From a virus (taxonomy: Duplodnaviria; Caudoviricetes), in the IMG/VR virus record IMGVR_UViG_3300049486_000079, positions 1 to 64,000 of that record: DNA of 64,000 nt. One strand, written 5' to 3'. The notes beneath the pieces were generated by a model. It was not told where the DNA came from. It saw only the letters and a list, made by a program, of their open reading frames with translations, and ran no database searches. Of this stretch, positions 900 through 46,900 are shown piece after piece; position 1 is the first letter of the stretch; every line of letters begins with the position of its first letter. Both the position numbers and the translations under genes were made by a program.

Positions 900-1133
900 T
901 CATCGGCGCCTCGCCTTCGGCTTTGCGCTCGCGATGATGAGGCGCGCAGCCTCATTGCTTAGGCTGACCACATCTGCGTATGCGCCGCGTCCGCGCCCGC
1001 GCCTGTGAAAGACGGTACAATCCTCGGCACTAAGGAGGACAGAATAGCCGACGAACACGTCGCACAGGGTCGCAAGCTCGGCGTCGCTCAGCCCGGTCGC
1101 CGGCTTCTCGGTTGTCCTACAAGAAAACGTCAT
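900..1133 (-). CDS. hypothetical protein
   Basis: MTFSCRTT... start overlaps the stop of 1130..1435 (ATGA), with a GGAGG SD upstream. Confidence 0.5.
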   Translation of the reverse strand: MTFSCRTTEKPATGLSDAELATLCDVFVGYSVLLSAEDCTVFHRRGRGRGAYADVVSLSNEAARLIIASAKPKARRR

Positions 1134-1435
1134 ATTTCCTCCTCGAAGGCTCTCTTCTCGGCCAGACGTCGCGATCTGCGCCGCTGGCGCTTCGTGGGAC
1201 ACTTACGTACGCCTCCTCTGAGCGGCTTCGGAATAGACGGACGCTTCTCGTATGAAAAGGATCTCGACGAATAATAAGGTTGTAAAAACCAACCACATCC
1301 TTTGTAGGGGCAGAAGCGAACACTGTAATAGTCGCTGTCATCCTCGGCGACCATCGGTAGCCGGTGCTCAGGGCACCAAGGAGGATACATGCATTGATAC
1401 CGAACCGGGTGAAAGCCCGGGCAATAATCGTACAA
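1130..1435 (-). CDS. hypothetical Zn-ribbon protein with basic tail (start uncertain)
   Basis: CPEH...CPYKGC motif, Arg-rich C-terminus. Confidence 0.45.
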   Translation of the reverse strand: MYDYCPGFHPVRYQCMYPPWCPEHRLPMVAEDDSDYYSVRFCPYKGCGWFLQPYYSSRSFSYEKRPSIPKPLRGGVRKCPTKRQRRRSRRLAEKRAFEEEI

Positions 1436-1455: not shown

Positions 1456-1571
1456 CCGGCTGCGGGGCTCGCCTCTCACCGCCCCAATTGGGTGAGAGCA
1501 TGGCAGCGCGTAGGCCCAAGCAAGCACAAACTCGACCATCGGTTGGGGGTGCCGCATAATCGAGCAACCGG
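1456..1571 (-). ncRNA. putative structured RNA with kissing loops (family not recognised)
   Basis: Stems CCGGUUGC/GCAGCCGG, CUCGAUUAU/AUGGUCGAG, GCUUGCUU/AGGCGAGC and CUCACC/GGUGAG; complementary loops CCCCAA and UUGGGG; starts just after the promoter at 1576-1604. Confidence 0.5.
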
Positions 1572-1575
1572 AGCA

Positions 1576-1604
1576 ACTCTACCGCCGTCGAGTACAGAAG
1601 GCAA
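1576..1604 (-). promoter_or_regulatory. sigma70-type promoter
   Basis: TTGCCT-N17-TAGAGT. Confidence 0.65.
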
Positions 1605-1608
1605 GCCT

Positions 1609-1965
1609 TCAAGAAAGAAGATAAGGACGCCATTCCACAGGATACTGGCAATTCGAGATGCTTCGGAAAAGAGGCGCGATCTGAGGGTCCTGATACCCCG
1701 CCAGTCCGCACCCTACCCTCGTGACGAGGAAGTTCAGATCTGGATTCGACGCGGCATACTCGCAAAATCGCGCGACGTAACGTGCGATCTCGGCAAGTGG
1801 GAGGGAGCGAAGGAGAAAATCTTTCGTAGGAATCGCGTAAGAGTCTCCCTGGCGACCCTCTCCTTGACCATATACCGCTCCGTAATGCTGTCGCGCGTAA
1901 AGCGCTGCTCCCCTCCCATGCCTCCCAGCAAGGTTAGAACCAAACACGAAGATATGAGAGGACAT
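1609..1965 (-). CDS. A1S_2505-family phage non-structural protein
   Basis: IFVFGSNLAGRHGRGAA...SYAIPT...FLVTRVGCGLAGY signature. Confidence 0.8.
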   Translation of the reverse strand: MSSHIFVFGSNLAGRHGRGAALYARQHYGAVYGQGEGRQGDSYAIPTKDFLLRSLPLAEIARYVARFCEYAASNPDLNFLVTRVGCGLAGYQDPQIAPLFRSISNCQYPVEWRPYLLS

Positions 1966-1967
1966 AG

Positions 1968-2255
1968 TTACTGCTTCACGGTGAGATCAGGTCGGGCGAA
2001 GCTCGGTCCCGTATCAAGTATTTGCAGAGCTTTCGCGCGATCCAATACGTGAGTCTCTGCGAGGGGATCGAGAAGGACGCTGCGCACATCCTCCATATCC
2101 AGGCCCCACGCATCGCCCACAATCGACAGGGCGTTATCAAGATCCCATGCCCACCAAAAGTTACATCCTCCGAGATCGAGGGCGTAACCCCCTCTCTCCT
2201 TCCAGCAAGAAAGAAGGTCTTCCCTGGTGTCGCAGTATTCCGCGTATTCAGTCAT
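1968..2255 (-). CDS. hypothetical protein
   Basis: GAGGTG SD; packs 2 nt before the next gene. Confidence 0.6.
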   Translation of the reverse strand: MTEYAEYCDTREDLLSCWKERGGYALDLGGCNFWWAWDLDNALSIVGDAWGLDMEDVRSVLLDPLAETHVLDRAKALQILDTGPSFARPDLTVKQ

Positions 2256-2308
2256 CTTTTCACCTCTCTTTTACAAGAGACCGCACGGTCCTTATTGAAA
2301 ATAGACTT

Positions 2309-3466
2309 TCAGTTTGCCAGATGCAGATGACTCGGACCCCCAGAAATACGAGGGAGCGTCCACACCTCAAACACTACGGAAGGAAATTCTCCGTGGATCG
2401 TCTGGCCGCTGAAAACGAGCCCTGCTCGCGTACAGGCCTCCCGGGCCCACTCCGCGTTCTCACCGTACACCTTCACTACCACCTGATTCGGCTGCAAGGG
2501 AGCGGCAAGCGTGACCGACTGCGGATTGACCGTCAGACGTCCGTATATTTCTTGGGTCGGCAACGCCTCTTGACCCTCCGGAACCGCGACAAGCGCAAGG
2601 ATCGCCAGCGTAGCACCGTCCACAAAAATAGTCGCCCGGAGCTTTACCCGCGTACCGTCCGCGACCGTAAAAGGAGGAACCGCGTCAAAATGAGCCTGAA
2701 TTGCCCGAAGCTCGTCTTTCGTCACGATGTAGTAATAGGCACGCCCTGATGTCTCAGTCAAGGGCTGAGGGGACTCGCTCTCGGCCTCGACCAGTAACTG
2801 ATCGACAACCCTTGCGTTTTCCTCCGCCCGCAGCAGGCTCTCCTGCATCCGATCCAAAAGGCCGCGCGCGTCCACGGGCATCACCTGTGTAGGCTCATCC
2901 TCGAACGAACTCGGAAAGCGCATCTCCGGCACAATCGGATCAGGCGGCAACACCCCCACAACGCCCTTCTCCTCTTTTTGCCTTCTAATAAGGTATCTCG
3001 CCATTGTAAGAAACAGCGCCTGGACAGGCTGAGGCAGCTCAAATAAAGAAGCACCATCGGTCAAGGGAAGCGCCGTAACGTCGAAAAGCCGGCCAAACCT
3101 ACACATCTTAGCGTAGAGATCAAACGCGAAGCTGTCGTAGTTGTTCTCTTCGAGGGCAGGGAAGGGCGAGGCACCGGAGTAATCACGCGTCCCTACCTGC
3201 TCGGAGAGCTTCAGATAAAGCGACTCCAGCACCTGATGCTTTGTACTATACAGCAATTGAATCGAATCCACGGAGCCGAGAGGCGAATCCTTTACCGCCT
3301 CCATCATATACGCCGCTTCGTCTCGCATCTCTGCAATGGTCTGAAGCAGTGACTGGTTCTCCGCCCGCTCTTGCTCGATCACACTCCTGAGCTGCTCAAA
3401 GGTTCTCAGTAATTCGCCCTCGATCAAAGAAGTCGCCTTCGTGTCTTCGTCTTGCGAGTCTGCCAT
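2309..3466 (-). CDS. hypothetical protein, N-terminal coiled coil
   Basis: 385-aa ORF with natural composition. Confidence 0.7.
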   Translation of the reverse strand: MADSQDEDTKATSLIEGELLRTFEQLRSVIEQERAENQSLLQTIAEMRDEAAYMMEAVKDSPLGSVDSIQLLYSTKHQVLESLYLKLSEQVGTRDYSGASPFPALEENNYDSFAFDLYAKMCRFGRLFDVTALPLTDGASLFELPQPVQALFLTMARYLIRRQKEEKGVVGVLPPDPIVPEMRFPSSFEDEPTQVMPVDARGLLDRMQESLLRAEENARVVDQLLVEAESESPQPLTETSGRAYYYIVTKDELRAIQAHFDAVPPFTVADGTRVKLRATIFVDGATLAILALVAVPEGQEALPTQEIYGRLTVNPQSVTLAAPLQPNQVVVKVYGENAEWAREACTRAGLVFSGQTIHGEFPSVVFEVWTLPRISGGPSHLHLAN

Positions 3467-3564
3467 CTAAAAACATCCTTCAGGAATGCCGCTCGTTGTA
3501 CTTCGTGGTGCGGCCACTTGGGACTTGAAAAGCTCCCGATCACAAGCTACTAGGCTGTCCCTGG

Positions 3565-4149
3565 ATGGGCCAGCTTTTTCTACTTGATTCTGTCAACTAC
3601 CTGACCGCTCACGACATCGCTCTCATCGAGAGCAACGTACGCCTAATGGACGCAGACCTCGCTGTCTGTGTCAATTCCTTCCGCTACCAAGGAGATCTCG
3701 ATCAGCTCGCAAAAACACGAATTATGTCCTCCGACGCCGTCAGCATTGCAATCGATCCTTTCCATCGTAGATTCGCAATCGCCTTTTCTTCTTATTCTAG
3801 ATTGGACAGCTCACAACAAGCTGTTGTTTACAGTCGAGGTGTTGCCTTGTTCTCAAAAGGAGACTGGGTCGGGGGAATCACAAGTGTTGCCCGCAACACA
3901 CAGCTCTTCCTGAAATCTTCAAGTGTAGAAGATAAAGGCTTCCTCGCCAGCATCGATATTCTTAATAAAAGCCCCTCTATTCAAAACACAATGACCGCTC
4001 TACTGTTCGTACCGTTCATGCTGGGAATCGCCCTCGCAGTGACCGTGTGGCTGCGCCATCTCGATCGAAAAGATCAAGAGAGAAAGCGACAGGAAGAGGA
4101 AGAGAAGGCCTATAGCAACCGGCCTCGCGGAAACCGGATCCAGCTCTAG
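3565..4149 (+). CDS. TPM-domain-like membrane protein
   Basis: LDSVNYLT...FSKGDWVGGI pattern resembles a TPM domain; C-terminal TM helix and charged tail. Confidence 0.5.
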   Translation: MGQLFLLDSVNYLTAHDIALIESNVRLMDADLAVCVNSFRYQGDLDQLAKTRIMSSDAVSIAIDPFHRRFAIAFSSYSRLDSSQQAVVYSRGVALFSKGDWVGGITSVARNTQLFLKSSSVEDKGFLASIDILNKSPSIQNTMTALLFVPFMLGIALAVTVWLRHLDRKDQERKRQEEEEKAYSNRPRGNRIQL

Positions 4150-4376
4150 CCTCCAGGGTACAGACGAGATCGGATCAGCTCGACCGTCTCCTGCATGCCC
4201 GCCGCCACATAGAGCAGACGAGTCCTCAAGGCTCCTGACTCGGAGCCGAACTCCCCAACCAGATCTTCGACTCGCTTCTCAATCAGCTCGATGAGGAGGA
4301 GGCGCTCCTCGCGAATAACTGCTTGTGCGACCTTTCGGCACTCGGGCGTCAGCTTCGGTCTAGGCGTATCGGTCAC
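4146..4376 (-). CDS. hypothetical protein
   Basis: 76-aa helical ORF convergent with 3565..4149. Confidence 0.55.
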   Translation of the reverse strand: MTDTPRPKLTPECRKVAQAVIREERLLLIELIEKRVEDLVGEFGSESGALRTRLLYVAAGMQETVELIRSRLYPGG

Positions 4377-4415
4377 ACTGTGTGTGTAGGAGCATGTCGC
4401 ACTAGAGGTCTAGTC

Positions 4416-4536
4416 AAAACGAAACGGGGAGGGGATCTCCGACCGTAGCACTCGACCCGGGGGAAAATGTTGGACTGGAGGTACGTGTATTCAGCACAGC
4501 GGACACACACTACATTGAACAGCCGAAGATCCCCTC
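4416..4536 (-). ncRNA. putative ~120-nt small RNA with long closing stem
   Basis: GAGGGGAUCUUCGGCUGU pairs with ACGGUCGGAGAUCCCCUC (18 bp; G-U pairs work only on the minus strand); internal GUGUGU/AUACAC stem; U-rich 3' end; own promoter. Confidence 0.65.
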
Positions 4537-4542
4537 AACCCC

Positions 4543-4571
4543 ACTCTAACACCATGCCAACCGCACGGGAA
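4543..4571 (-). promoter_or_regulatory. sigma70-type promoter with extended -10
   Basis: TTCCCG-N17-TAGAGT with TGn before the -10; predicted start at 4536 is the first base of the RNA stem. Confidence 0.6.
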
Positions 4572-4575
4572 GCCC

Positions 4576-4726
4576 CCGTCATAGATCGCTTACCCTTACA
4601 AATTAAGGCACGCCTTCGTTTTGCGAAGTCAGCAGGGTATATGCGCCAACCCAAGGACCATACGGTCCTTGTACCGTATTAAGAATACGGCCAATCTCAG
4701 CAGCTTACGCTCAAACCACGGTGTTT
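4576..4726 (-). ncRNA. multi-hairpin element downstream of folA
   Basis: Hairpins at 4594-4608, 4614-4628, 4652-4671, 4674-4690, 4702-4711 and 4713-4726; no credible ORF. Confidence 0.4.
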
Positions 4727-4728
4727 AA

Positions 4729-5199
4729 TTAGAGACATTGACGATAAAATAGGCACGCCAAACGAGGGTCTTCATCATTATGAGAAACCCTATCTTTGAC
4801 GAAGCGTGTCAAGTCGATGTCGGGAAACCGCGTAGCTTCCGGATGTTCTACGCAGTCAGGAACCACCGTCAGATCGATCCCCTCCGCATACTGCATACCT
4901 TCTGCATAGATCTGCGCTCCCCCAATCAACCATGTGGGATTACGTGTCGCATGGATCGCTTCGACCAACGACCGGAAGCACTCGACTCCAAAGATTGGAG
5001 TCCGAGTCACAATCAGATTTCGTCTGGACGGGAGAGGACGGCCCAGAGACTCATAGGTCCGCCGACCCATGATGACCGTACCGCCTAAGGTGAGACGCTT
5101 AAAGCGACGGAGATCGGCAGGATAGTGCCACGGGATTCGACCGTGTAGTCCAATTACGCCGTTCTGCGATACTGCTGCGATGATGGTGACTGAGGCCAT
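4729..5199 (-). CDS. folA: dihydrofolate reductase
   Basis: IAAVSQNGVIG..IPW...DLRRFK...VIMGRRTYESLGRPLPSRRNLIV...IGGAQIY. Confidence 0.96.
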   Translation of the reverse strand: MASVTIIAAVSQNGVIGLHGRIPWHYPADLRRFKRLTLGGTVIMGRRTYESLGRPLPSRRNLIVTRTPIFGVECFRSLVEAIHATRNPTWLIGGAQIYAEGMQYAEGIDLTVVPDCVEHPEATRFPDIDLTRFVKDRVSHNDEDPRLACLFYRQCL

Positions 5200-5217
5200 A
5201 CCTCACAGCATACGAGA

Positions 5218-5421
5218 TCAGGGCGTCCGCTCGAACTCGAAATACTCACTGATCTCTGCCAAGACACTCTGCACTATGGCCTCTTGGACAACAGCAGCAC
5301 CAGGCTGATCCGTATGCTTGTAGGCTCGCTGCCACCCCATTGCGACTCCCTCTTCAACGGCCCGAAGTAGCACCGGATAAGGACGCACACTTATTGTGGA
5401 TGAATTCCTATCGTCTCCCAC
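5218..5421 (-). CDS. conserved-type small phage protein
   Basis: AVEEGVAMGWQRAYKHTD...EISEYFEF; AGGAG SD. Confidence 0.65.
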   Translation of the reverse strand: MGDDRNSSTISVRPYPVLLRAVEEGVAMGWQRAYKHTDQPGAAVVQEAIVQSVLAEISEYFEFERTP

Positions 5422-5442
5422 GGGAGAACTCCTTTCAATGGA

Positions 5443-5531
5443 CGGAGTGAGAGGGATTCGAACCCCCGGTGACCGTTTCCAGCCACAGCGATTTTCAAGA
5501 CCGCTGCCTTAATCCACTCGGCCATCACTCC
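5443..5531 (-). tRNA. tRNA-Ser(UGA)
   Basis: GGAGUGA/UCACUCC acceptor, GCGGU-CU-UGA-AA-AUCGC anticodon arm, long variable arm, GGUUCGAAUCC T arm, G73; followed by TCCA rather than CCA. Confidence 0.95.
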
Positions 5532-5543
5532 TTGTCCCCCAGC

Positions 5544-5777
5544 TCAAGGGGGAGCTTCGTCTTCAAATACAATCTTGTTCGGAGGATCCGTCAACCCGAA
5601 ATCGACCCGATCGGCCAACTGTCTCAGAGCAAGGGCAATCACCCGGGTGCGCGCCTCTTCGACCGTATGCATCGGGTTCGATTGACAATGTGAAAGGTCG
5701 GCTACGACGCCTCGCCACTTCCCTTTGGCTTTGCGATACGTAATACGAAAAGAAATCGTAGAAGGTAACGGTTTCAA
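5544..5777 (-). CDS. HicB-like antitoxin-fold protein
   Basis: FRITYRK..GKWRGVVADLSHCQS..HTVEEARTRVIALAL fits the HicB-type pattern. Confidence 0.5.
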   Translation of the reverse strand: MKPLPSTISFRITYRKAKGKWRGVVADLSHCQSNPMHTVEEARTRVIALALRQLADRVDFGLTDPPNKIVFEDEAPP

Positions 5778-5899
5778 TACCGTCTCCTACGCTTGCGCCT
5801 CCTGAACTCCGTGTACAAAACATGAAGGAAATAAATCGTCACCCCCGTCGCAAGACCGAAACAAATCGCGGAGGCGAGCACGAGATCCTGATCGCTCAT
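5774..5899 (-). CDS. small single-TM protein with poly-Arg tail (41 aa)
   Basis: MSDQDLVLASAICFGLATGVTIYFLHVLYTEFRRRKRRRRY; stop overlaps the next start; promoter upstream. Confidence 0.6.
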   Translation of the reverse strand: MSDQDLVLASAICFGLATGVTIYFLHVLYTEFRRRKRRRRY

Positions 5900-5908
5900 G
5901 ACCCGCGT

Positions 5909-5937
5909 TCTATAGTCCAAAATAACGACCGAGGCAA
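5909..5937 (-). promoter_or_regulatory. sigma70-type promoter
   Basis: TTGCCT-N17-TATAGA, ATG 9 nt downstream. Confidence 0.55.
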
Positions 5938-6771
5938 TCAAACAGCCACCTTGAACGAAATCGCAGGATGCGAGCGATAATTCTCAATCTTGAAAAGATT
6001 CAGGAGTGTAGCACTGTCCTCATGGATCAACGACTCCACGTCCCCAAAAGACCGAATGCTCGGGTCAATACGAAGCGACGGCAACGGAAGAGGAGCCCTC
6101 AAGAGCTGTTCCTTCAGTCCAGGCACATGATCCCATTCGCTCATCGACCCGTCGGCCTTGGCCGTATAGACATGGGCATCGACAATCGAATGCGCAAACT
6201 TCCCAGGAATGAGACCAGAGAAGCGTGCGAACAAATGCAGCAAAAAAGCATAACCCGCGATGTTGTAGGGTACACCCAGTGCTACGTCCGCAGATCTCTG
6301 CGTTAGGTGTAGATTCAGAACATTGCCTTGCACATTGAAAATCCACATGACGTGACAAGGTGCGAGCGCCATCAGATGGAGCTGTGCCGCATTCCACGCT
6401 GAGATCACAATACGCCGTGAAGAAGGATCGTTCTTCAGAAGATGAATCGCTGCCCGAACCTGATCCGACCAGTGGCGCCATTGGTAGCCATAGACGGGTC
6501 CCAGCTCTCCTTCTTGGTTTGCCCAATTATTCCAAATACGAACCCCGTGCTTATTAAGCAAGGCGACATTCGTGGATCCATTGAGCATCCAAAGCATCTC
6601 TACCAGAACATTTTTCCAGCTCACTGTTTTTGTCGTAACCAGAGGGAAACCCTCGCGGGTATCGTAGACCCGATGGTCCGAGAAAACACTCAGAGTATCG
6701 ACTTGGGTCCGGCTCTCTTTACGAGAGCCTTCGTCAAGGACACGGGAAACGAGATCGAGATAGGCCTTCAC
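5938..6771 (-). CDS. thyA: thymidylate synthase
   Basis: GFPLVTTK, LGPVYGYQWR, MALAPCH, QRSADVALGVPYN, DAHVY; GTG start at 6771 with AGGAGG SD. Confidence 0.97.
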   Translation of the reverse strand: MKAYLDLVSRVLDEGSRKESRTQVDTLSVFSDHRVYDTREGFPLVTTKTVSWKNVLVEMLWMLNGSTNVALLNKHGVRIWNNWANQEGELGPVYGYQWRHWSDQVRAAIHLLKNDPSSRRIVISAWNAAQLHLMALAPCHVMWIFNVQGNVLNLHLTQRSADVALGVPYNIAGYAFLLHLFARFSGLIPGKFAHSIVDAHVYTAKADGSMSEWDHVPGLKEQLLRAPLPLPSLRIDPSIRSFGDVESLIHEDSATLLNLFKIENYRSHPAISFKVAV

Positions 6772-6904
6772 AGTGTTGCACCTCCTGCCCGAATAAGAAA
6801 GCAGGGTGCGGGTAGTGAAGAAAGATGTCCAGCGAGAAAAGGTGAACCGATCAGACCTAGTCGGGGGACTACAAGGAGAGGACACTCCCCTCTTCTCGCT
6901 GGAC
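6772..6904 (-). promoter_or_regulatory. structured thyA 5' leader or upstream sRNA, plus an SD-sequestering hairpin
   Basis: 16-bp stem 6889-6904/6827-6842 enclosing two hairpins; a second hairpin at 6778-6809 pairs over the AGGAGG. Confidence 0.6.
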
Positions 6905-6910
6905 GAAAGA

Positions 6911-6939
6911 GTGATAGCGCCGCCCGGGGCAGAAGTCAA
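6911..6939 (-). promoter_or_regulatory. sigma70-type promoter
   Basis: TTGACT-N17-TATCAC; predicted start at 6904 is the first base of the leader stem. Confidence 0.6.
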
Positions 6940-6956
6940 CTGCCAAAAGGTGTGCT

Positions 6957-8045
6957 TTAGAACGGGGGCAATTTCGGATTGTAGATCTGTAACACCGCGT
7001 CCAGGTAGATACGGAAGACGATCAACGCGTTCAGGTTGTTGATGTCGAGACGCCAGGCTTTCCGCGACGGCTCGTATTTGAAGCGGAGAATGTTGTTTCC
7101 TGTCCGGGCATCAGTTCGCACTTCCAATCCGGTCCCAAGTGATGTACGTGTCCCGAGTCGGACGCTGACAGGATTCGCAGGATCTCTATGGTTCTTGACC
7201 TCCAGCCCACTCATAACCGTTCCCCCAAAGCGTAAACCCTCTCCATCTATGTTGATGAGCCCTCCAATGACCATTGTGTTCTGACTGATTTTACTAGGAA
7301 TAGACCCTTCGTTATAGCAACCGTAACATTCTGAAAATTGGCTATCACCCTCGAACCAGTGCGCAGGATGTGCCTTGCCTGTATCCCGATCAATCTGAAG
7401 ATCACCAAGAACAGCTACGTGCACAGATCCGAGAAACGAGGAATCGAAATAGCCTGCACAAGGCCCTAAAGTCGCTTCCCAGCGATTCGCTCTTGAGCAG
7501 TTCGCGTAGACCTCCGCTCCGAGCGTGAGCCCTACATTCACATCAGGACCGTCGATATACACGCCGGCATGTTGGGCGTTTTTAACGTGAATAGAGGTCA
7601 TTCTCCAGGCGTTGGCGTTCGTGCCTTGACTGACCGCATGCCCGTCAATACGGATCCCTTGGACGAATCCAACCGTCTCGACATGTTCTATATTCATGCG
7701 AGCGAGAACCTTGATCCCAAAGGTGGGGATCGTAGAAGTCACCACGCCAGGGGACTGGATGGAAAGTCCTTCAATTAGACTACGACCCGCACCAGGACTC
7801 TTCTTTGGACAGCGCGGTCCTCTCGCGAACTCAAAAGCAGTCGTTCCGGTCACAACATGAAGACGAGTCAGTGCAATGCCTTCTCCATGTACGACCGTCG
7901 GTTTACAGTAACGAATAGTCTTACGGAGAGCACAATCGCCTTCAGAAAGCTGAATCGAGTGTCCCTCGGCTTCCTGAAGGCGATCGGTGATGTCTCCAAA
8001 ACAAACGACAGGAGTTGCCGCTACGATGAGCAGGGCTATAAGCAT
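6957..8045 (-). CDS. secreted right-handed beta-helix (pectin-lyase-fold-like) protein
   Basis: Hydrophobic N-terminal signal; HGEG..TRL, IEGLSI, GIRIDG and GVYIDG rung-like repeats. Confidence 0.55.
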   Translation of the reverse strand: MLIALLIVAATPVVCFGDITDRLQEAEGHSIQLSEGDCALRKTIRYCKPTVVHGEGIALTRLHVVTGTTAFEFARGPRCPKKSPGAGRSLIEGLSIQSPGVVTSTIPTFGIKVLARMNIEHVETVGFVQGIRIDGHAVSQGTNANAWRMTSIHVKNAQHAGVYIDGPDVNVGLTLGAEVYANCSRANRWEATLGPCAGYFDSSFLGSVHVAVLGDLQIDRDTGKAHPAHWFEGDSQFSECYGCYNEGSIPSKISQNTMVIGGLINIDGEGLRFGGTVMSGLEVKNHRDPANPVSVRLGTRTSLGTGLEVRTDARTGNNILRFKYEPSRKAWRLDINNLNALIVFRIYLDAVLQIYNPKLPPF

Positions 8046-8078
8046 GGGAGCATATTAGCAATAGGCTCCTGTAAGAAG

Positions 8079-8573
8079 CTAGGTCGTGTGTAGCGGCTCG
8101 GACTTCGCCAGAAGCAGAGTCTTCTCAAGCAATCCCACTACCTCAGACTTCCCCGTTTGAGGATCGTCGTTGAACTCCACAAGACTGGAAAAATGCCTCG
8201 GTTTACGCAAAACCACGCAAATAAGCTCCAGAGGCTGAACAGCCTCCTGCGAGAGCGTTTCGGCCAATAAAGCTCCCAAGAGGCACCACGAACTTGCGAG
8301 AGTCTCCCGAGGCATCTTCTCTACCCCGAAGGAATCGCACGCGAACTTGTGCTTCGTCCATCCTTGCTCTACACGACGCAACATCGACTCTAAAATCGTC
8401 ACGCAGTCGAGAACCTTAAGCCCACAATCAGCACAACGCCACAGAACATATGGAGCAGGAGGTTCCACAATAAGGGGGTGCTGGTGCTTCGTAAAAATCG
8501 CAGGGTTCCCAGGATTCCAAGGCGATGTTGAAGTACACAAAAACCGCTCTATAGGCACAACGACAATCCTCAT
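8079..8573 (-). CDS. DUF6197-like phage protein
   Basis: QGWTK...WCLLGAL...FNDDP pattern. Confidence 0.55.
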   Translation of the reverse strand: MRIVVVPIERFLCTSTSPWNPGNPAIFTKHQHPLIVEPPAPYVLWRCADCGLKVLDCVTILESMLRRVEQGWTKHKFACDSFGVEKMPRETLASSWCLLGALLAETLSQEAVQPLELICVVLRKPRHFSSLVEFNDDPQTGKSEVVGLLEKTLLLAKSEPLHTT

Positions 8574-8830
8574 TCGTCCTTTGAGTAGAGAAAGGCCTCT
8601 TTCCCCATCTCATAGGCCGAAAGTATCAAGTCGCTCAAGGCTTTTTGATAAAGACGAGCTTCGTGGTTACTGGTGAATTCCCTGGTTACCCCGCGAAAGG
8701 AGGTGTTCTCCGGACAATAAACCGAGACTCGGAAACGACTATCCGCCGCCACAGACTCGACCACAGCACGCATTCGTAGACCGGACATAAGACATCGTGT
8801 CGCCTGTTCTCCACAAGAAGTCAACGACAC
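8570..8830 (-). CDS. hypothetical protein
   Basis: GGGAG SD; ATGA overlap with the next gene. Confidence 0.55.
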   Translation of the reverse strand: MSLTSCGEQATRCLMSGLRMRAVVESVAADSRFRVSVYCPENTSFRGVTREFTSNHEARLYQKALSDLILSAYEMGKEAFLYSKDE

Positions 8831-8978
8831 TCTCCCTGATTCGTAGGTCTATATAGGGTAGGGCAAGCCTTTATGTTTTTTTCGCTCGACCTCGTACAAA
8901 GCACGTGCCTACAGTCTCCTACACAACCGAGTGGCTGACCCTTTCGTTTCAACAGCCAAGGTTTACTCTAAATAAGCT

Positions 8979-9521
8979 ATGACCAAAGACCCGAACGAGA
9001 CCACACCTGACAACGCCTCAGAGGAAACAGAAGACCTAGCAATACCAGTCGAACAGGACTTTGAGACAGAAATAGACGAAGAGAACGGCGAGGAAAAAGC
9101 CGAAGAAGAGCCCTCGAAGCCTACCGTATTTCTGTATGAGAAAGAGACAATGGAGCCCTTTCCGGAGGGGAACTGGATATGCAATATCCTCTACCCGGAA
9201 AAAGAAACACAAGAAGACGCTCTCTCGGATATCGGATACGATACTGTTTTCTTGCGCCTCGGCGCCCCAGGACGCTTTTACGTAGAAGTACGGACCACGT
9301 GGGCCCCTGAGGAGATCTATCCTGAATACCTCTGCCTGCTGAACAGCAGCACGCAGAGCCTGGTCACTGGCGAGCCTGACGTGTCGGTCGTGGCGATCTT
9401 CTGTAAATCGATACAGGACGCTTTGTCCTTTTTGAATACCGTCTCTCCTATCGTCCAAGCAGAAACCGTTACGGCCTTTTACAATCGAGCAGACGCGGGG
9501 ATTACTATGAAGCTGCGTTAG
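8979..9521 (+). CDS. hypothetical protein with acidic N-terminus
   Basis: 180-aa ORF upstream of ruvB. Confidence 0.7.
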   Translation: MTKDPNETTPDNASEETEDLAIPVEQDFETEIDEENGEEKAEEEPSKPTVFLYEKETMEPFPEGNWICNILYPEKETQEDALSDIGYDTVFLRLGAPGRFYVEVRTTWAPEEIYPEYLCLLNSSTQSLVTGEPDVSVVAIFCKSIQDALSFLNTVSPIVQAETVTAFYNRADAGITMKLR

Positions 9522-9665
9522 GTCGATTCTGAACGGACAGCTCAGGCCCTGCTCTGGGCTGTCCGCTCTTCTACACACGCCTTTGTGCGTAAAATCACGG
9601 ACCCGCTGGAGCCCCAAATGGAAACACTGCTTTTGAATAGCGAAAACCGCCCCATTTCGAGACCC

Positions 9666-9694
9666 TTGACTCCCGATGGGCGTGCCTTTAGAGC
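9666..9694 (+). promoter_or_regulatory. sigma70-type promoter for leaderless ruvB
   Basis: TTGACT-N17-TAGAGC; ATGs at 9699 and 9702. Confidence 0.6.
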
Positions 9695-9698
9695 TAAC

Positions 9699-10682
9699 AT
9701 GATGGACAAGATGGGAGGCGAGAAGGCGTTTGACAACGCGCTTCGCCCGAATAGCCTGAACGAGTACATCGGTCAGACCAAGCTCAAGGCAAACCTGGCC
9801 GATATGATCCAGTCCTCCCGCATCCGGGAGGCGGCAGTGGATCACGTTCTGCTCTCCGGCCCCCCGGGGCTCGGGAAGACCAGCATCGCAGCGGTCATCG
9901 CGTACGAGATGAAGACGAAGCTGCACCTCCTCACAGCTCCGGCTTTGTCCGGCGACAAGGGTCTGTCCGTGCTGGCGGCAACCTTCTCTCAAGTCGAGGA
10001 AGGGGATGTCGTGTTCATCGACGAGATCCACCGTCTGTCTAAGAAGCTCGAAGAGAGCCTCTACATGACCATGGAGGACAACCAATTCCCCTTCGTCTCT
10101 GGTAAGGGAAAGAACGCCTCGCTTAAGCATTTCCCCGTCGCCAAGCATACGCTCGTCGGAGCGACCACCTTGGCGCACGGGCTGACGCCGGCTCTTCGAG
10201 ACAGGTTCGGGTTTCACGCGAAACTCGATTTCTATGAGACCGCCGAGCTGCAACAGATCATTCAGAGGAGTGCGAAAATTCTGAACGTACACCTCGACAA
10301 GGCGGCGTCGCTGGAGGTGGCCAAGCGATCCCGGGGCACGCCCCGGATCGCAAACCAGTTGACCAAGCGTCTGCGAGACTACTCACTCTCGCGCTCGAAG
10401 GATCTGACTGCTCCTGTCGTCAAGCAAGCGCTGACGGAGATGGGCGTCGATGACATCGGGCTGAATGATCTCGACCGCAAGGTGATGGAGATCATCCTCA
10501 GCAAGTTCGACGGCGGACCGGTGGGGGTAAACACGCTGGCGGCTGCGGTAGGGGAGGCGGAACAAACGATCGTCGATATCGTCGAGCCTTACCTTATCCG
10601 CAACGGTTTCCTCGATCGAAGCCCTCGGGGGCGCGTGCTTACGCCACGAGGCGCCAAGCATCTCGCAGTGACTACTCACTGA
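9699..10682 (+). CDS. ruvB: Holliday junction branch-migration ATPase RuvB
   Basis: LRP..L.EYIGQ, GPPGLGKT, FIDEIHRL, GATT, LRDRFG, SRGTPRIAN, EPYL..RSPRGR; start 9699 or 9702. Confidence 0.97.
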   Translation: MMDKMGGEKAFDNALRPNSLNEYIGQTKLKANLADMIQSSRIREAAVDHVLLSGPPGLGKTSIAAVIAYEMKTKLHLLTAPALSGDKGLSVLAATFSQVEEGDVVFIDEIHRLSKKLEESLYMTMEDNQFPFVSGKGKNASLKHFPVAKHTLVGATTLAHGLTPALRDRFGFHAKLDFYETAELQQIIQRSAKILNVHLDKAASLEVAKRSRGTPRIANQLTKRLRDYSLSRSKDLTAPVVKQALTEMGVDDIGLNDLDRKVMEIILSKFDGGPVGVNTLAAAVGEAEQTIVDIVEPYLIRNGFLDRSPRGRVLTPRGAKHLAVTTH

Positions 10683-10864
10683 CGTGTTTATTCCCAATAA
10701 AGAAGCAACGGCTGCGCGACGCCAGAAAGAAAGTACGCGACTGAACCACGTCGATTGGAAGCCTGCTAGGACGTAAAGAAGATCTTTATTCGTAATAAAA
10801 TCTTCTGGCCTTTTAGCGGAAGGCATGCCTCCGGGCAGATAAAACCCTAACAAACAAACACGCC
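10681..10864 (-). ncRNA. putative ~185-nt multi-branched RNA
   Basis: 13-bp closing stem GGCGUGUUUGUUU/GAAUAAACACGUC (G-U pairs work on the minus strand only) enclosing 4-6 hairpins, e.g. 10777-10806. Confidence 0.55.
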
Positions 10865-10873
10865 TGGGGTGGA

Positions 10874-10902
10874 TTGACTTCTGCCCTGTCCGCTTATACG
10901 AG
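10874..10902 (+). promoter_or_regulatory. sigma70-type promoter, leaderless
   Basis: TTGACT-N17-TACGAG, ATG at 10910; shares TTGACTTCTGCCC with the thyA promoter. Confidence 0.55.
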
Positions 10903-10909
10903 CTTGACC

Positions 10910-11341
10910 ATGAACCAAGCTGCGGATAACAAACTGAAATCAGATCTACAACGAGAGAGGCGAGAAAGCCTTCTCGAAGAATCTCTCCAAGAAAAGTTCC
11001 TGGAAGCGTTTGACCTTCTCAGCGCTGAGATCGTCGCTTTCGGGTTCGACGTCGGCGATAACCGCAAGGCGTACACACATGCGTGCCGGAATTTCGCGAA
11101 GTGGCTCGGTACCAAGAGGGGCCAAGACTACCTGGCAGATGTGATGCTCTCCCCTGAGGTCGGACTCATGCCTCCCCTGAGGGAGCCAGGTAAGAAAAAG
11201 AGCGCCAATGTGGAAAAAGAAAGCGCTAAAAAAAGCGCGAAACGGTCTTCCGCAAAAAAGACACTCCGGTATAGTGCCCAGAAACATGGCCCGGCCTCGA
11301 AGAAGACTTCTCGAAAGAAGTCAAAGCCTGCAAAACGCTGA
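10910..11341 (+). CDS. hypothetical protein with Lys/Ser-rich (histone H1-like) tail
   Basis: KKSAKRSSAKK...KKTSRKKSKPAKR. Confidence 0.65.
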   Translation: MNQAADNKLKSDLQRERRESLLEESLQEKFLEAFDLLSAEIVAFGFDVGDNRKAYTHACRNFAKWLGTKRGQDYLADVMLSPEVGLMPPLREPGKKKSANVEKESAKKSAKRSSAKKTLRYSAQKHGPASKKTSRKKSKPAKR

Positions 11342-11687
11342 GAGCTGGCGGAACCTCGCCTGTCTGCTGTACGGGCAGTCCCTTTGGACGCCTCTTGTCG
11401 ATCCCAGAACATCGCCCGGGAGACCTCCTAGCTTGCTGAGCTGGCGCGACTTGGACGAGGTGAGGTGTACCTTGAGCCGAGCCCTTTGGGCCGCCGAGAG
11501 TGAGGCCTCCCGGTGGAGGCGTGCCTTTGAAGAAGGTCTCGGTCTCCCTAGCGACCCCGTCAAGCACACCCCTGACTGGTGTCGAAATGCCCTTGTCAAT
11601 CTACAGAAGTGTGCTATGAGGCCGGCAGATGTCCCCTCGAAAGAGAACTTCTTTGACGCAACACCTCATCTTAGCGACATTGCGTAA
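11208..11687 (+). CDS. hypothetical protein (true start probably further downstream)
   Basis: 3' part fills the gap between neighbouring plus-strand genes. Confidence 0.4.
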   Translation: MWKKKALKKARNGLPQKRHSGIVPRNMARPRRRLLERSQSLQNAESWRNLACLLYGQSLWTPLVDPRTSPGRPPSLLSWRDLDEVRCTLSRALWAAESEASRWRRAFEEGLGLPSDPVKHTPDWCRNALVNLQKCAMRPADVPSKENFFDATPHLSDIA

Positions 11688-11859
11688 GGGGGGCACAATC
11701 AAAGAAATAGGTAAAAACAAACATGGCCTCATCGCGTCCAACGGGCGCCTAGAACAAATCGTCACCGACAGCACACTCAAAGCACTCTGTGAGAAAGAAG
11801 GCGTTAGGTGGTGCGAGCAGTCCCGATCGTTCGTCCTTCTGCCAAAAAACACACTATGA
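11629..11859 (+). CDS. hypothetical protein
   Basis: ATGA overlap with the next ORF. Confidence 0.45.
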   Translation: MSPRKRTSLTQHLILATLRKGGTIKEIGKNKHGLIASNGRLEQIVTDSTLKALCEKEGVRWCEQSRSFVLLPKNTL

Positions 11860-12041
11860 ACTCAAATAAAACAGAAGAAAAACAAACAGAAGCTGAGGCG
11901 ATTCTACGTAAAATCGATTCCCTAGCTCGACAGATCAAAGAGCTAGGCAACCGCTACAGTCAGATCCAAGAGGAGATCCAAAAAGACGTCTTCACGGTCC
12001 TTCAATTGGAGGAGGAAGAAGGACCACGCGGTCCCCACTGA
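11856..12041 (+). CDS. small coiled-coil protein
   Basis: MNSNKTEEK... heptad pattern. Confidence 0.55.
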   Translation: MNSNKTEEKQTEAEAILRKIDSLARQIKELGNRYSQIQEEIQKDVFTVLQLEEEEGPRGPH

Positions 12042-12502
12042 TACCGCCCTCGACGGTAAAGCCAGGGTGCAATAGGAGTCTCATTGCTCTGCCATAGGCC
12101 TCTCTTAGAGAGCCGGGCTTTGCGCTGAGACTCCTCCCACTCGATTCCTCCTGAGTAGGCGTCGTAGCTCCATGCATACCCCTCATCGACCATCTGACGA
12201 TTTATCGAGGGGGTCTTCCCTGGAAGATAGATTTCAGCAAGAATGCGCGCGTAACGGTCTCGCTTGAACGCGCGAACTTCGACCTCTTTGCCCATGATCT
12301 TATCCACAAGCACTGACCGCGACGCCAGACCAAAGGTCTGGTACTTTTCAGGAGCGTCGATGTACATCAGGCGAACCCGTTCCTTTTTACTATTTCTAAT
12401 AACCTCCACTGTATCCCCGTCTATCACCACTACGACTTTCGCGGTAAAGACATCCGGAGGGACAGCACAAATCCAAGCTGCTACAAGCGCAGATAGAATC
12501 AT
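12002..12502 (-). CDS. thermonuclease (SNase-family) with N-terminal hydrophobic signal
   Basis: VIDGDT, VRLMYIDAPE, DRYARILA, MVDEGYAW, KRGLW; start MILSALVAAW at 12502. Confidence 0.93.
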   Translation of the reverse strand: MILSALVAAWICAVPPDVFTAKVVVVIDGDTVEVIRNSKKERVRLMYIDAPEKYQTFGLASRSVLVDKIMGKEVEVRAFKRDRYARILAEIYLPGKTPSINRQMVDEGYAWSYDAYSGGIEWEESQRKARLSKRGLWQSNETPIAPWLYRRGRYQWGPRGPSSSSN

Positions 12503-12556
12503 GGCTATATAATACACAACATCTTTGTAAGTCTTGAAGGTAAAATGTAACCGTAA

Positions 12557-12750
12557 GCGTAGGTGGCCGAGAGGAAAGGCACAGTAAAACGGACACTGTT
12601 GTACGCCTCGAAAGAGGTGGTCAGCGGGTTGCGGATGCACCTAGCAGCGCTGGAGGGCTGAAACGTCCCCAGGTTCGCGCAATGCCACTGCGGGGAAGCG
12701 CGTTTACCGTCGACCTGAAAGTCACGCGGGTTCAATTCCCGCCCTACGCA
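12557..12750 (+). ncRNA. tRNA-like RNA: class II tRNA body with the anticodon loop replaced by a ~110-nt four-hairpin domain
   Basis: Acceptor GCGUAGG/CCUACGC plus A73; U8; D arm GCC-GAGAGGAAA-GGC; variable arm GAC-CUGAAA-GUC; T arm GCGGG-UUCAAUU-CCCGC. Confidence 0.8.
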
Positions 12751-12753
12751 TCA

Positions 12754-13098
12754 ATGGCCCCCTTGTCTCAAAATCAGGATGAACACATCTTTGCCACAAA
12801 GGTCGACTTCACTGGCTACTTCACCGCAATAAGGAACAAGAAAATATGCACGGTGTCGATCAGAGAGACTGACTATATAATCATCAGTGCTCAAAAAGAA
12901 ACGCTTCTCAAGCTTTCCCAGTTTTATCAACTTGGATGGGAGGAGACGAACATATTGCCCATACGAGACGGCAAGGTGTTCCTACGGGAGTGCATGAAGC
13001 TCAGCCGTGTCGCATTCGATCCCGTGGTCACCGACAAGGGCCTCGTCTCGTTCAACGAGGTGCTGCCTACCCTCCCTCGACCTGCCGGTATCAATTGA
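12754..13098 (+). CDS. hypothetical protein
   Basis: MAPLSQNQ... ATG 3 nt after the tRNA-like RNA. Confidence 0.6.
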   Translation: MAPLSQNQDEHIFATKVDFTGYFTAIRNKKICTVSIRETDYIIISAQKETLLKLSQFYQLGWEETNILPIRDGKVFLRECMKLSRVAFDPVVTDKGLVSFNEVLPTLPRPAGIN

Positions 13099-45745: not shown

Positions 45746-46900
45746 TCAATAAGGCACAGCAACTGCACGCAGAGGAAAAGCTGAACCCCCTGTCGGCATA
45801 AACTGGATCCAGGGCTCAGAAGTCGAGGGCGAAGTCGCAATCGTATAACGCCCCCAAACTGCACACTTCGTATTATCCCCGGTCGAACCTGTTGTAGGCG
45901 GGATCAGGTAGTGATTGTTGCCGCTCGTGGGAATTACGCCCACCATCGAAAACGCAGCGCCTCCCCACTGTCCTCCGCGAGGATTGAAACAAAAACCAAG
46001 AGCGCGCCCGTCGTCAGACGACGACGTAAGATGCATCTTGTAAAGCACACCATAATTTCCAGATATTGTCTCCGCTGTTGGGGGCGAAACTGCGTTATCA
46101 TAGCCAGTCACATTCGCATCGTTCGCTGTGTTCCCCGCAATCGGAAACTGCTGCACATCCCCTGATGTTAAAATAGTACCCGTGGCGTCATAGACCTTAT
46201 CTGCATAGTCAAACGTCCCCCGATCATGCGAGTCGCGAGACGCCACGGATAATCCAGGGCAGACGCTGGTAGCAGAGTCGCCAGTGTTCAACATGCAAAT
46301 AGCGACTGTGTGATCACAAGGGAATGAGTAGTCCCAAATGCCGTGGTAAAGATTGCCGTTCGAGACATTGGTCCCATTAAAAGTCGAGTCGAGCGCGACC
46401 CAGCTCCCGGCAGAGACATTGACTCCCGAAGCAGCAGAAGACGTATCCCAACGATTATAAGCGAGCTTGCCTGCATACAAAAAGCTCGTGGTCGGTCCCG
46501 CAAGCCCAGTCTTCTGACGTGTAAGCGTGCACGAAGTTCCTGAACGGTTCTTAAGAACAACTGCAAAACGCTTTGTCGAACCCGAGTTGTTCACATGATA
46601 CGAGAAAATGCGATTGTAGACCCCTGACGAAGTTGCTCCGAGAGTCGCATCTTCATAAAGCTTCGTTTTCGCGGTCGGACTTTCGGGTGAGTCCGAAAAA
46701 ATCAGCTTCCCGCCTTCCCAGGTCTCCGACATCGAGATCTCAGGACACCCTGGAACAGATGAAATACCGTCAAGCGTAATAACCTGCGCTAGAGTCGAAT
46801 TAGTCATGTCCGTATCGAGCGTCGAACTCACGGGACAACTGCCGTAAGCCTCGCGCGTGATAAAGACAGCGACCAAACCAAGATATGCTCTCCAATTCAA
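45746..46900 (-). CDS. secreted-type protein with signal peptide
   Basis: MNWRAYLGLVAVFITREAYG; LIFSDSPE, GNYGVLY and NPRGG motifs; several Cys. Confidence 0.65.
   Translation of the reverse strand: MNWRAYLGLVAVFITREAYGSCPVSSTLDTDMTNSTLAQVITLDGISSVPGCPEISMSETWEGGKLIFSDSPESPTAKTKLYEDATLGATSSGVYNRIFSYHVNNSGSTKRFAVVLKNRSGTSCTLTRQKTGLAGPTTSFLYAGKLAYNRWDTSSAASGVNVSAGSWVALDSTFNGTNVSNGNLYHGIWDYSFPCDHTVAICMLNTGDSATSVCPGLSVASRDSHDRGTFDYADKVYDATGTILTSGDVQQFPIAGNTANDANVTGYDNAVSPPTAETISGNYGVLYKMHLTSSSDDGRALGFCFNPRGGQWGGAAFSMVGVIPTSGNNHYLIPPTTGSTGDNTKCAVWGRYTIATSPSTSEPWIQFMPTGGSAFPLRAVAVPY

Follow-up and report, generated by a model that had tools for sequence, protein, structure and literature searches.

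In the window analysed here, the first 64 kb of the single 92,840-bp contig IMGVR_UViG_3300049486_000079 (a tailed-phage genome of 53% G+C with genes almost all on the minus strand), the stretch 12557-12750 on the plus strand is a tRNA-like RNA gene of 194 nt, with a genuine tRNA body that lacks an anticodon loop. A first-pass annotation had counted this stretch among at least six structured small RNAs (sRNAs) that would together serve host takeover or counter-defence. It is fairly probable that the six elements are instead unrelated features of the early or accessory region of the genome and do not form one RNA toolkit. Genuine features at the RNA level, which are partly supported, are the tRNA-like gene and two long strand-specific hairpins, 6827-6904 and 4416-4536 on the minus strand, at the borders of a block of nucleotide-metabolism genes that runs from thyA to DHFR. 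Genome-wide counts given below are over the whole contig.

The tRNA-like element was recognized by its fold, by a scan for a joint tRNA signature and by ARAGORN in intron mode. The acceptor stem (12557-12563 with 12743-12749) has seven out of seven Watson-Crick pairs and U8 is present, as are a class-II D arm at 12566-12580 (GCC-GAGAGGAAA-GGC) and a canonical T arm at 12726-12742 (GCGGG-UUCAAUU-CCCGC) in which all five stem pairs form; a discriminator A (A73) stands at 12750 and CCA is not encoded. The nucleotides that make tertiary contacts in tRNA are intact (U8, A14, GG, T54-A58 and G53-C61), and the T loop has the TTCRANN form. In an unconstrained partition-function fold the acceptor stem pairs with a probability of about 1.0, the D stem with 0.82 and the T arm with 0.97-0.99. 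When the genome was scanned for the joint signature of a T arm, a 7-bp acceptor stem and a D arm with U8, A14 and GG, only 12557-12750 and the tRNA-Ser of this phage were found, and the signature was encountered in none of 300 shuffled genomes.

In the place of the anticodon loop lie about 125 nt (12581-12725) that are predicted to form three to four hairpins with GAAA, CUGAAAC and CUGAAAG loops, the GAAA tetraloop hairpin carrying two G-U pairs. Neither with ARAGORN nor by direct reading does any excision produce a canonical anticodon loop of 7 nt. A tRNA would have a 5-bp anticodon stem with a 7-nt loop (U33 and a purine at 37) and a length of approximately 70-95 nt; the element has no such loop and measures 194 nt. 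Rfam recognizes only 18 nt of the T arm, below the gathering cut-off, and since this is all it matches, the element fails to qualify as a tRNA, a transfer-messenger RNA (tmRNA), a group I intron or a Y RNA. Among the covariance models of Rfam, those for Y RNA/YrlA, skipping-rope and other catalogued tRNA mimics gave no match.

Another conceivable identity is a working tRNA from which an intron is spliced, or a miniature tmRNA, and some observations point that way. ARAGORN in intron mode, which makes 0.1 false calls per shuffled genome, reports a tRNA here; the tmRNA model is the best Rfam match to the T arm; and a 20-nt stretch of the T arm is identical in the permuted tmRNA of Bordetella phage PHB04. 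However, the ARAGORN solution is a forced 'tRNA-Thr' with a 113-nt intron, and it is non-canonical, with a mismatched stem, the 'intron' at 29/30 and no U33. The group I intron model (Intron_gpI) stays below threshold, with no match at E<=10 in a 271-nt search, and the insert measures just 113-125 nt or so. For the tmRNA model (RF00023) the score is 15 bits, obtained with the T arm alone, where at least 47 bits are required; ARAGORN finds neither a tmRNA nor a tag peptide, and there is no open reading frame (ORF) for a tag; the 3:70 pair is G-C, whereas charging with alanine needs G-U; and the D arm is of the full tRNA type, unlike that of tmRNA. The tmRNA reading was dropped on these grounds, and we consider both forms of this explanation highly unlikely. 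With tmRNA, and also with YrlA, the element does share a composition in which a large domain foreign to tRNA is attached to an acceptor/T-arm module. Where the tRNA-like element has its two ends in the acceptor stem, YrlA has them in the stem that binds Ro. As to the Bordetella phage itself (NC_047861, approximately 46061-46432; positions 2938-3309 of our locus L161), ARAGORN finds in it a permuted tmRNA with the tag ANDDYIRAAA, and this gene and three tRNAs within 1.5 kb have been left unannotated in the record.

Three nucleotides past the 3' end of the tRNA-like element starts a gene for a protein of 114 amino acids (12754-13098, plus strand), which has no Shine-Dalgarno sequence. Among 1.8 billion cluster representatives this protein has one detectable homologue (P0009), encoded on a 3.6-kb JGI metagenome contig, which is 77% identical, equally long and begins at the same Met. 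A real gene thus follows the tRNA-like element, which forms its immediate 5' flank. The protein has no Pfam match. Structural leads from the Atlas are SseB- and DUF2750-like (TM about 0.6), which gives a weak lead to a possible fold of that type; an assignment of function from structure was abandoned, the AlphaFold2 model having a pLDDT of 37. The sequence CTATATAAT occurs just twice in the 92.8-kb genome, at 12505-12513 and 12873-12881 on the plus strand, 368 nt apart, one copy being upstream of the tRNA-like gene and the other within the downstream ORF (codons D-Y-I-I).

Relatives of the locus were sought widely. Megablast and tblastn against 50,697 phage records yielded none, blastn with the tRNA-like element matched T arms only, no locus of the same synteny was obtained from IMG/VR when four proteins and one alignment served as queries, and neither a protein alignment nor an acceptor-anchored RNA pattern yielded anything from the JGI metagenome contigs. 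No close relative of the phage contig as a whole was found in the phage, IMG/VR or JGI collections. At the protein level there are two relatives, the 77% identical homologue mentioned above and a protein of 50% identity (P0002) on a 64-kb Logan contig. Loose patterns that join a class-II D arm to a T arm, run on genome contigs and IMG/VR, returned among the matches listed tandem tRNA-Ser pairs and two tRNA-like genes that bear inserts. One of these (L242), on a contig of a giant-virus metagenome-assembled genome, is a class-II tRNA-like gene of 192 nt with an insert of about 100-115 nt; the other (L263), on the 194-kb IMG/VR contig 3300021387_001157, resembles tRNA-Tyr(GUA), with about 94 nt inserted between 37 and 38, where tRNA introns canonically lie. 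Neither resembles 12557-12750 in sequence.

These results bear on the main rival explanation, which is that the element is a dead tRNA gene: a functionless class-II tRNA (of Ser, Leu or Tyr type) that lost its anticodon arm to an insertion or to a decayed intron. The missing anticodon loop fits such a history, as does the lack of homologues by blastn or, among the matches listed, by pattern; moreover, the two genes just described show that inserts of 90-115 nt occur in tRNA genes of other viral contigs. Against a dead gene speak the helices of the body and the tertiary-contact nucleotides, which are all intact, the insert, which is rich in hairpins and has G-U pairs specific to the plus strand, and the position, which exactly adjoins a conserved gene without a ribosome-binding site of its own. 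We regard a dead gene as improbable, though it should be kept in mind.

From the tRNA body, the missing anticodon loop and the abutting conserved ORF, which are observed, a mode of action of the tRNA-derived RNA can be envisaged. The element and the gene that follows it after 3 nt would share one transcript, in which RNase P would make the 5' end of the element and a nuclease that matures tRNA 3' ends would cut after A73. All that the tRNA-processing enzymes recognise is present in the element: the coaxial stack of acceptor and T arm, the elbow of G18G19 and the T loop, and A73. Processing could release a stable tRNA-scaffolded RNA in which the insert is the working part, binding some protein or RNA; the mRNA of the downstream gene, which lacks a Shine-Dalgarno sequence, would at the same time be left almost without a leader. 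In its most far-reaching form, 12557-12750 would found a new class of phage RNAs, a natural 'tRNA scaffold' of which the body recruits RNase P, 3' processing, CCA addition and possibly an anticodon-independent synthetase, of which the 125-nt hairpin domain is the active part, and of which the 3' cleavage makes a leaderless mRNA, so that maturation is coupled to translation. This is a tentative proposal, possible at best. With respect to a synthetase, A73 and the class-II body would fit the Leu or Tyr type.

Two known systems are instructive for comparison. The closest design analogue is the engineered 'tRNA scaffold' of Ponchon and Dardel, in which the anticodon loop is said to be swapped for a foreign structured RNA, and which reportedly undergoes tRNA-type processing and is highly stable in vivo. 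The design is the same as in the tRNA-like element, but there it is artificial, whereas here the gene is natural and its processing and stability are putative. The closest natural analogue is RNA C of phage T4 (species 1 RNA, 139 nt). Our fold of it predicts at the 3' side a canonical T arm (CCGGG-UUCGAAU-CCCGG) with an acceptor-like stem, and long hairpins at the places of the D and anticodon arms. RNA C, the T4 RNA D and the tRNA-like element are all phage-encoded and longer than a tRNA. There is no sequence similarity to RNA C, which has an imperfect acceptor and no D arm, whereas the element described here has a perfect acceptor and a complete class-II D arm; furthermore, RNA C and RNA D lie in the T4 tRNA cluster, whereas the tRNA-like element stands alone next to a protein gene. 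The literature on the T4 family that was consulted (PMC3014915) reports no riboswitch or trans-acting sRNA as characterised, and only two stable RNAs of the tRNA region, RNA C among them, with an unknown role. A preprint (2026) on three families of tRNA mimics states that the secondary-structure connectivity of at least one of them is unlike that of tRNA.

To place the other candidates, each of the six was folded on both strands and compared with 200 dinucleotide shuffles, and 278 windows of 100 nt from 1-14 kb of the minus strand served as background (mean z -0.29, standard deviation 1.2, 5th percentile -2.3, 1st percentile -3.6). The hairpin with which the thyA leader begins, at 6827-6904 (78 nt), is the sole clear outlier by energy among the six, with a z of -5.0 to -5.3 on the minus and -3.3 on the plus strand; z values of -4.7 to -5 are reached by some windows within genes, too. 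Its predicted stem is uninterrupted over 16 bp and reaches about 19 bp when extended; UAGUC-CCCC-GACUA forms a hairpin at the apex, and AUCUUUCUU follows. The hairpin at the other end of the block (4413-4536, minus strand) has a closing stem of 4536-4519 with 4446-4429, which is uninterrupted over 18 bp, contains three G-U pairs, encloses about 70 nt and is followed by CCCGUUUCGUUUU. Its z, for 4416-4536, is -2.8 on the minus and -0.3 on the plus strand. An extended helix of 31 bp around this hairpin was discarded; it forms in the minimum free energy (MFE) structure and its z is just -1.5.

Uninterrupted stems (G-U allowed, span up to 170 nt) on the transcribed strand were counted and compared with 40 shuffles. 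The minus strand has six stems of at least 16 bp against 2.25±1.1 in shuffles, and three of at least 18 bp against 0.33±0.57. Only the stems at 4536-4429 and 6904-6827 are intergenic among the six; about 0.24 stems of at least 16 bp would be expected in gap DNA. Their tails are the most U-rich 12-mers among those of the top ten stems (6 U in 12 nt), and in the tail of 6827-6904 U occupies five of the first eight positions. Other stems were also noted. Gene 6957-8045 has towards its 5' end an uninterrupted 18-bp stem at 7933-7986 (minus strand), among the three longest on the transcribed strand, where 7901-8000 has a z of about -4.7, and the longest uninterrupted stem of the genome (21 bp, span 95 nt) is found beyond the window, in coding sequence at 85815-85909 of the contig (minus strand). 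A 13-bp hairpin at 9534-9565, between gene 8979-9521 (plus strand) and ruvB, is followed by CUCUUCU and has a z of about -5 (9501-9600); it looks like an inter-gene terminator or attenuator and was absent from the first-pass list.

Since the two long hairpins flank the block of thyA, tRNA-Ser and DHFR, with 6827-6904 at the 5' and 4416-4536 at the 3' border, they are most likely cis-acting leader, terminator or processing hairpins rather than free sRNAs. The former would act as a leader hairpin, either an attenuator or a stabiliser of the 5' end, where RNase III may also cut, and the latter as a 3' terminator or protective hairpin. Judged by the predicted stems (18 bp, and 16 bp plus 3), both may be long enough to be RNase III targets, for which about two turns of double-stranded RNA are needed. 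Phage early operons carry intrinsic terminators, 5' stabiliser hairpins and RNase III sites, such as the R sites of T7 and the leaders of T4 and lambda, and the present hairpins resemble these in having long G+C-rich stems, U-rich tails and a position at operon borders. Compared to textbook terminators, however, the predicted stems are far longer, and they enclose far larger loops, of 40-70 nt. A terminator scan calls neither hairpin, as loops of this size exceed its rules. The first gene of the block, thyA, has a GTG start at 6771 with AGGAGG 8 nt upstream. With rank 48 of 103 for closure, the region around its translation start is average for this genome, and sequestration of the Shine-Dalgarno sequence was dropped as a special feature of the leader. 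No THF, THF-II, ZTP, PRPP or other riboswitch was found in the thyA leader at E<=10 in the Rfam search of 1-14 kb.

For 4416-4536 it can also be argued that a promoter of its own makes it an independent sRNA of some 120 nt, either 6S-like or acting against Shine-Dalgarno sequences through CCUCC. The hexamers TTCCCG-17-TAGAGT end 7 nt short of the stem, gaps hold six of the nine copies of TAGAGT, which is an over-representation, and the 18-bp closing stem with a U-rich end would suit a discrete transcript. Yet the -35 box matches at only three of six positions, the enrichment of TAGAGT is lost after correction for 4096 tests, and there is no match to the 6S family at E<=10, the element being 121 nt long against about 180 nt for 6S RNA. 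Moreover, it lies directly downstream of an operon end, and in a read-through transcript the supposed promoter can pair with the U-rich tail, which lengthens the helix. A stand-alone sRNA is therefore quite improbable, and a cis-acting hairpin at the end of the block is the preferred reading of 4416-4536.

Promoter-like hexamers had been put forward for three of the candidates, with transcription starting exactly 7 nt after a -10 box in two of them. The hexamers are where they were said to be: TTGACT-17-TATCAC ends 7 nt before 6904, the pair given above is at the same distance from 4536, and TTGCCT-17-TAGAGT ends before 1571. The pattern is not enriched, however; a sigma-70 scan gave three sites against 7.6 in shuffles, which is fewer than by chance, and the looser form TTG..N16-18..TA...T shows no enrichment in gaps (4 of 35). 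The start at exactly 7 nt is thus argued from hexamers that show no enrichment in the genome. Only the promoter of thyA has independent support among these. The site at 6911-6939 (minus strand), upstream of the leader hairpin, reads TTGACTTCTGCCC..TATCAC, and its 13-mer, at 6927-6939, has an exact twin at 10874-10886 on the plus strand, before gene 10910-11341. The strict sigma-70 scan does not call the thyA site. Judged from the sequence, the TTGACTTCTGCCC sites may represent a phage promoter class with a conserved -35 box and spacer. A copy with three mismatches is present at 1604 (minus strand).

The remaining candidates are of a different nature. The stretch 4576-4726 consists of four short perfect hairpins directly past the DHFR stop codon, and it folds equally well on both strands, with a z of -2.2 (minus) and -2.4 (plus). 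Its strongest hairpin (4652-4671) contains the palindrome GGACCATACGGTCC at 4655-4668, an exact, intergenic copy, flanked by the three other hairpins, of a dispersed palindrome GGWCC-RYRY-GGWCC that has eight copies in the window where 0.01 would be expected; another copy is located at 12021-12034. The strand-equal folding together with the dispersed palindrome argues for an element at the DNA level, so that the core of 4576-4726 would be a copy of a putative binding-site palindrome that perhaps doubles as a 3' RNA hairpin. At 1456-1571 (minus strand), a GC-rich leader region, the 66% G+C alone explains why many stems can be drawn; the z is -0.2 on the minus and -1.2 on the plus strand, and +0.5 when the region is extended. 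The plus-strand stretch 10681-10864, which separates the stop codon of ruvB from the promoter-like TTGACTTCTGCCC site that precedes the following gene, has a z of -1.6 on both strands. Comparison of folds with shuffles supports no specific structure at either place, and the two are probably ordinary untranslated spacers.

The six candidates can now be considered as a set. The idea of at least six independent sRNAs for host takeover or counter-defence, three of which would bind G-rich Shine-Dalgarno sequences, or titrate an RNA-binding protein of the host, by means of CCCCC loops, draws on the promoter-resembling hexamers immediately upstream of three elements, on the strand specificity of three elements, and on an approximately 3-fold enrichment of C5 tracts in gaps genome-wide (12 of 39). 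The tracts indeed occur at the places indicated, yet their shared occurrence is at chance frequency: the minus strand has 39 CCCCC tracts genome-wide against 37 expected, 15 of which are in the first 14 kb, and three tracts within the 844 nt of the candidates, against about one expected, is close to chance and not significant. Of the claim that most gaps fold into multi-stem structures, 6827-6904 stands out strongly, 4416-4536 (minus), 4576-4726 and 12557-12750 (plus) reach z values between -2.2 and -2.8, and 1456-1571 and 10681-10864 behave like shuffled sequence; the shuffle test proposed with the claim thus leaves 6827-6904 as the only clear outlier by energy. In the background set, the degree of structure in gap windows does not significantly exceed that in coding windows (Mann-Whitney p=0.054). 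G-U pairs fix the strand for 4416-4536, 6827-6904 and 12557-12750, and fail to do so for the other three. The six elements have no sequence, motif or repeat family in common. The Rfam search that had been suggested, covering 6S and Y RNA, returned from 1-14 kb nothing other than tRNA-Ser at gathering thresholds or E<=10, and no 6S, Y RNA, riboswitch or other family at the candidates. A coordinated suite is unsupported because there is no shared repeat, two folds are shuffle-like, one element is centred on a strand-symmetric palindrome, CCCCC is at chance level and the hexamers are not enriched. We consider the toolkit very unlikely, and the six are better read as unrelated features.

Several points weigh against accepting the tRNA-like gene and the two hairpins as genuine RNA features. 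All helices, and the RNAs themselves, are predicted from a single sequence. As a candidate promoter the tRNA-like gene has a lone perfect TATAAT at 12508-12513, 43 nt upstream of the element, without a -35 box. The whole-molecule z of this element is only -2.3 on the plus strand (-0.7 on the minus strand), and the fold of its insert is ambiguous: relative to the MFE structure, an extended anticodon stem costs +3.3 kcal/mol and a local hairpin with a 9-nt loop +1.8 kcal/mol, so that energy does not separate the two alternatives. For 4416-4536 the support depends on the boundaries chosen, with a z from -2.8 to -2.3 and -1.5 in wider bounds on the minus strand. Stems of comparable length also occur within genes, and the U tails of the two hairpins are just moderately richer than those of coding stems.

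The surroundings of these elements are those of a phage early or accessory region. Searches with PHROG and Pfam identified thymidylate synthase ThyA (5938-6771, minus strand; PHROG 160, E 3e-85), DHFR (4729-5199, minus strand; PHROG 316), a phrog_2072 protein (1609-1965), RuvB (9618-10682; Pfam), an SNase-like nuclease (12002-12502) and a DUF6197 protein, and farther along the genome ribonucleotide reductase and baseplate proteins. The tRNA-Ser that the first-pass annotation had noticed alongside its candidates is confirmed by Rfam as tRNA-Ser(UGA) at 5443-5531 (minus strand), both at gathering thresholds and at E<=10. The candidates are also largely non-coding according to codon statistics and homology, in line with their description as intergenic gaps. 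Small ORFs within the gaps were rejected as an explanation of the candidates, having no coding signal by codon statistics. A possible ORF at 1130-1353 (minus strand) would encode 73 amino acids, rich in Cys and Arg, and would end in a stop codon that overlaps with the start ATG of gene 900-1133 in the sequence ATGA; codon statistics give no sign of coding, and Pfam has no match to it. If it is a gene, the gap around 1456-1571 may be shorter than was supposed.

With respect to the annotation of phage genomes, the present case calls for caution, as hand-drawn multi-stem folds of gaps are mostly at chance level in a genome of 53% G+C with a G/U-rich transcribed strand. On the other hand, if the working proposed for the tRNA-like element is true, it would provide a handle on what tRNA-shaped, non-decoding RNAs do in phages, and on the ways in which tRNA processing can be turned to the production of stable RNAs and of leaderless mRNAs.

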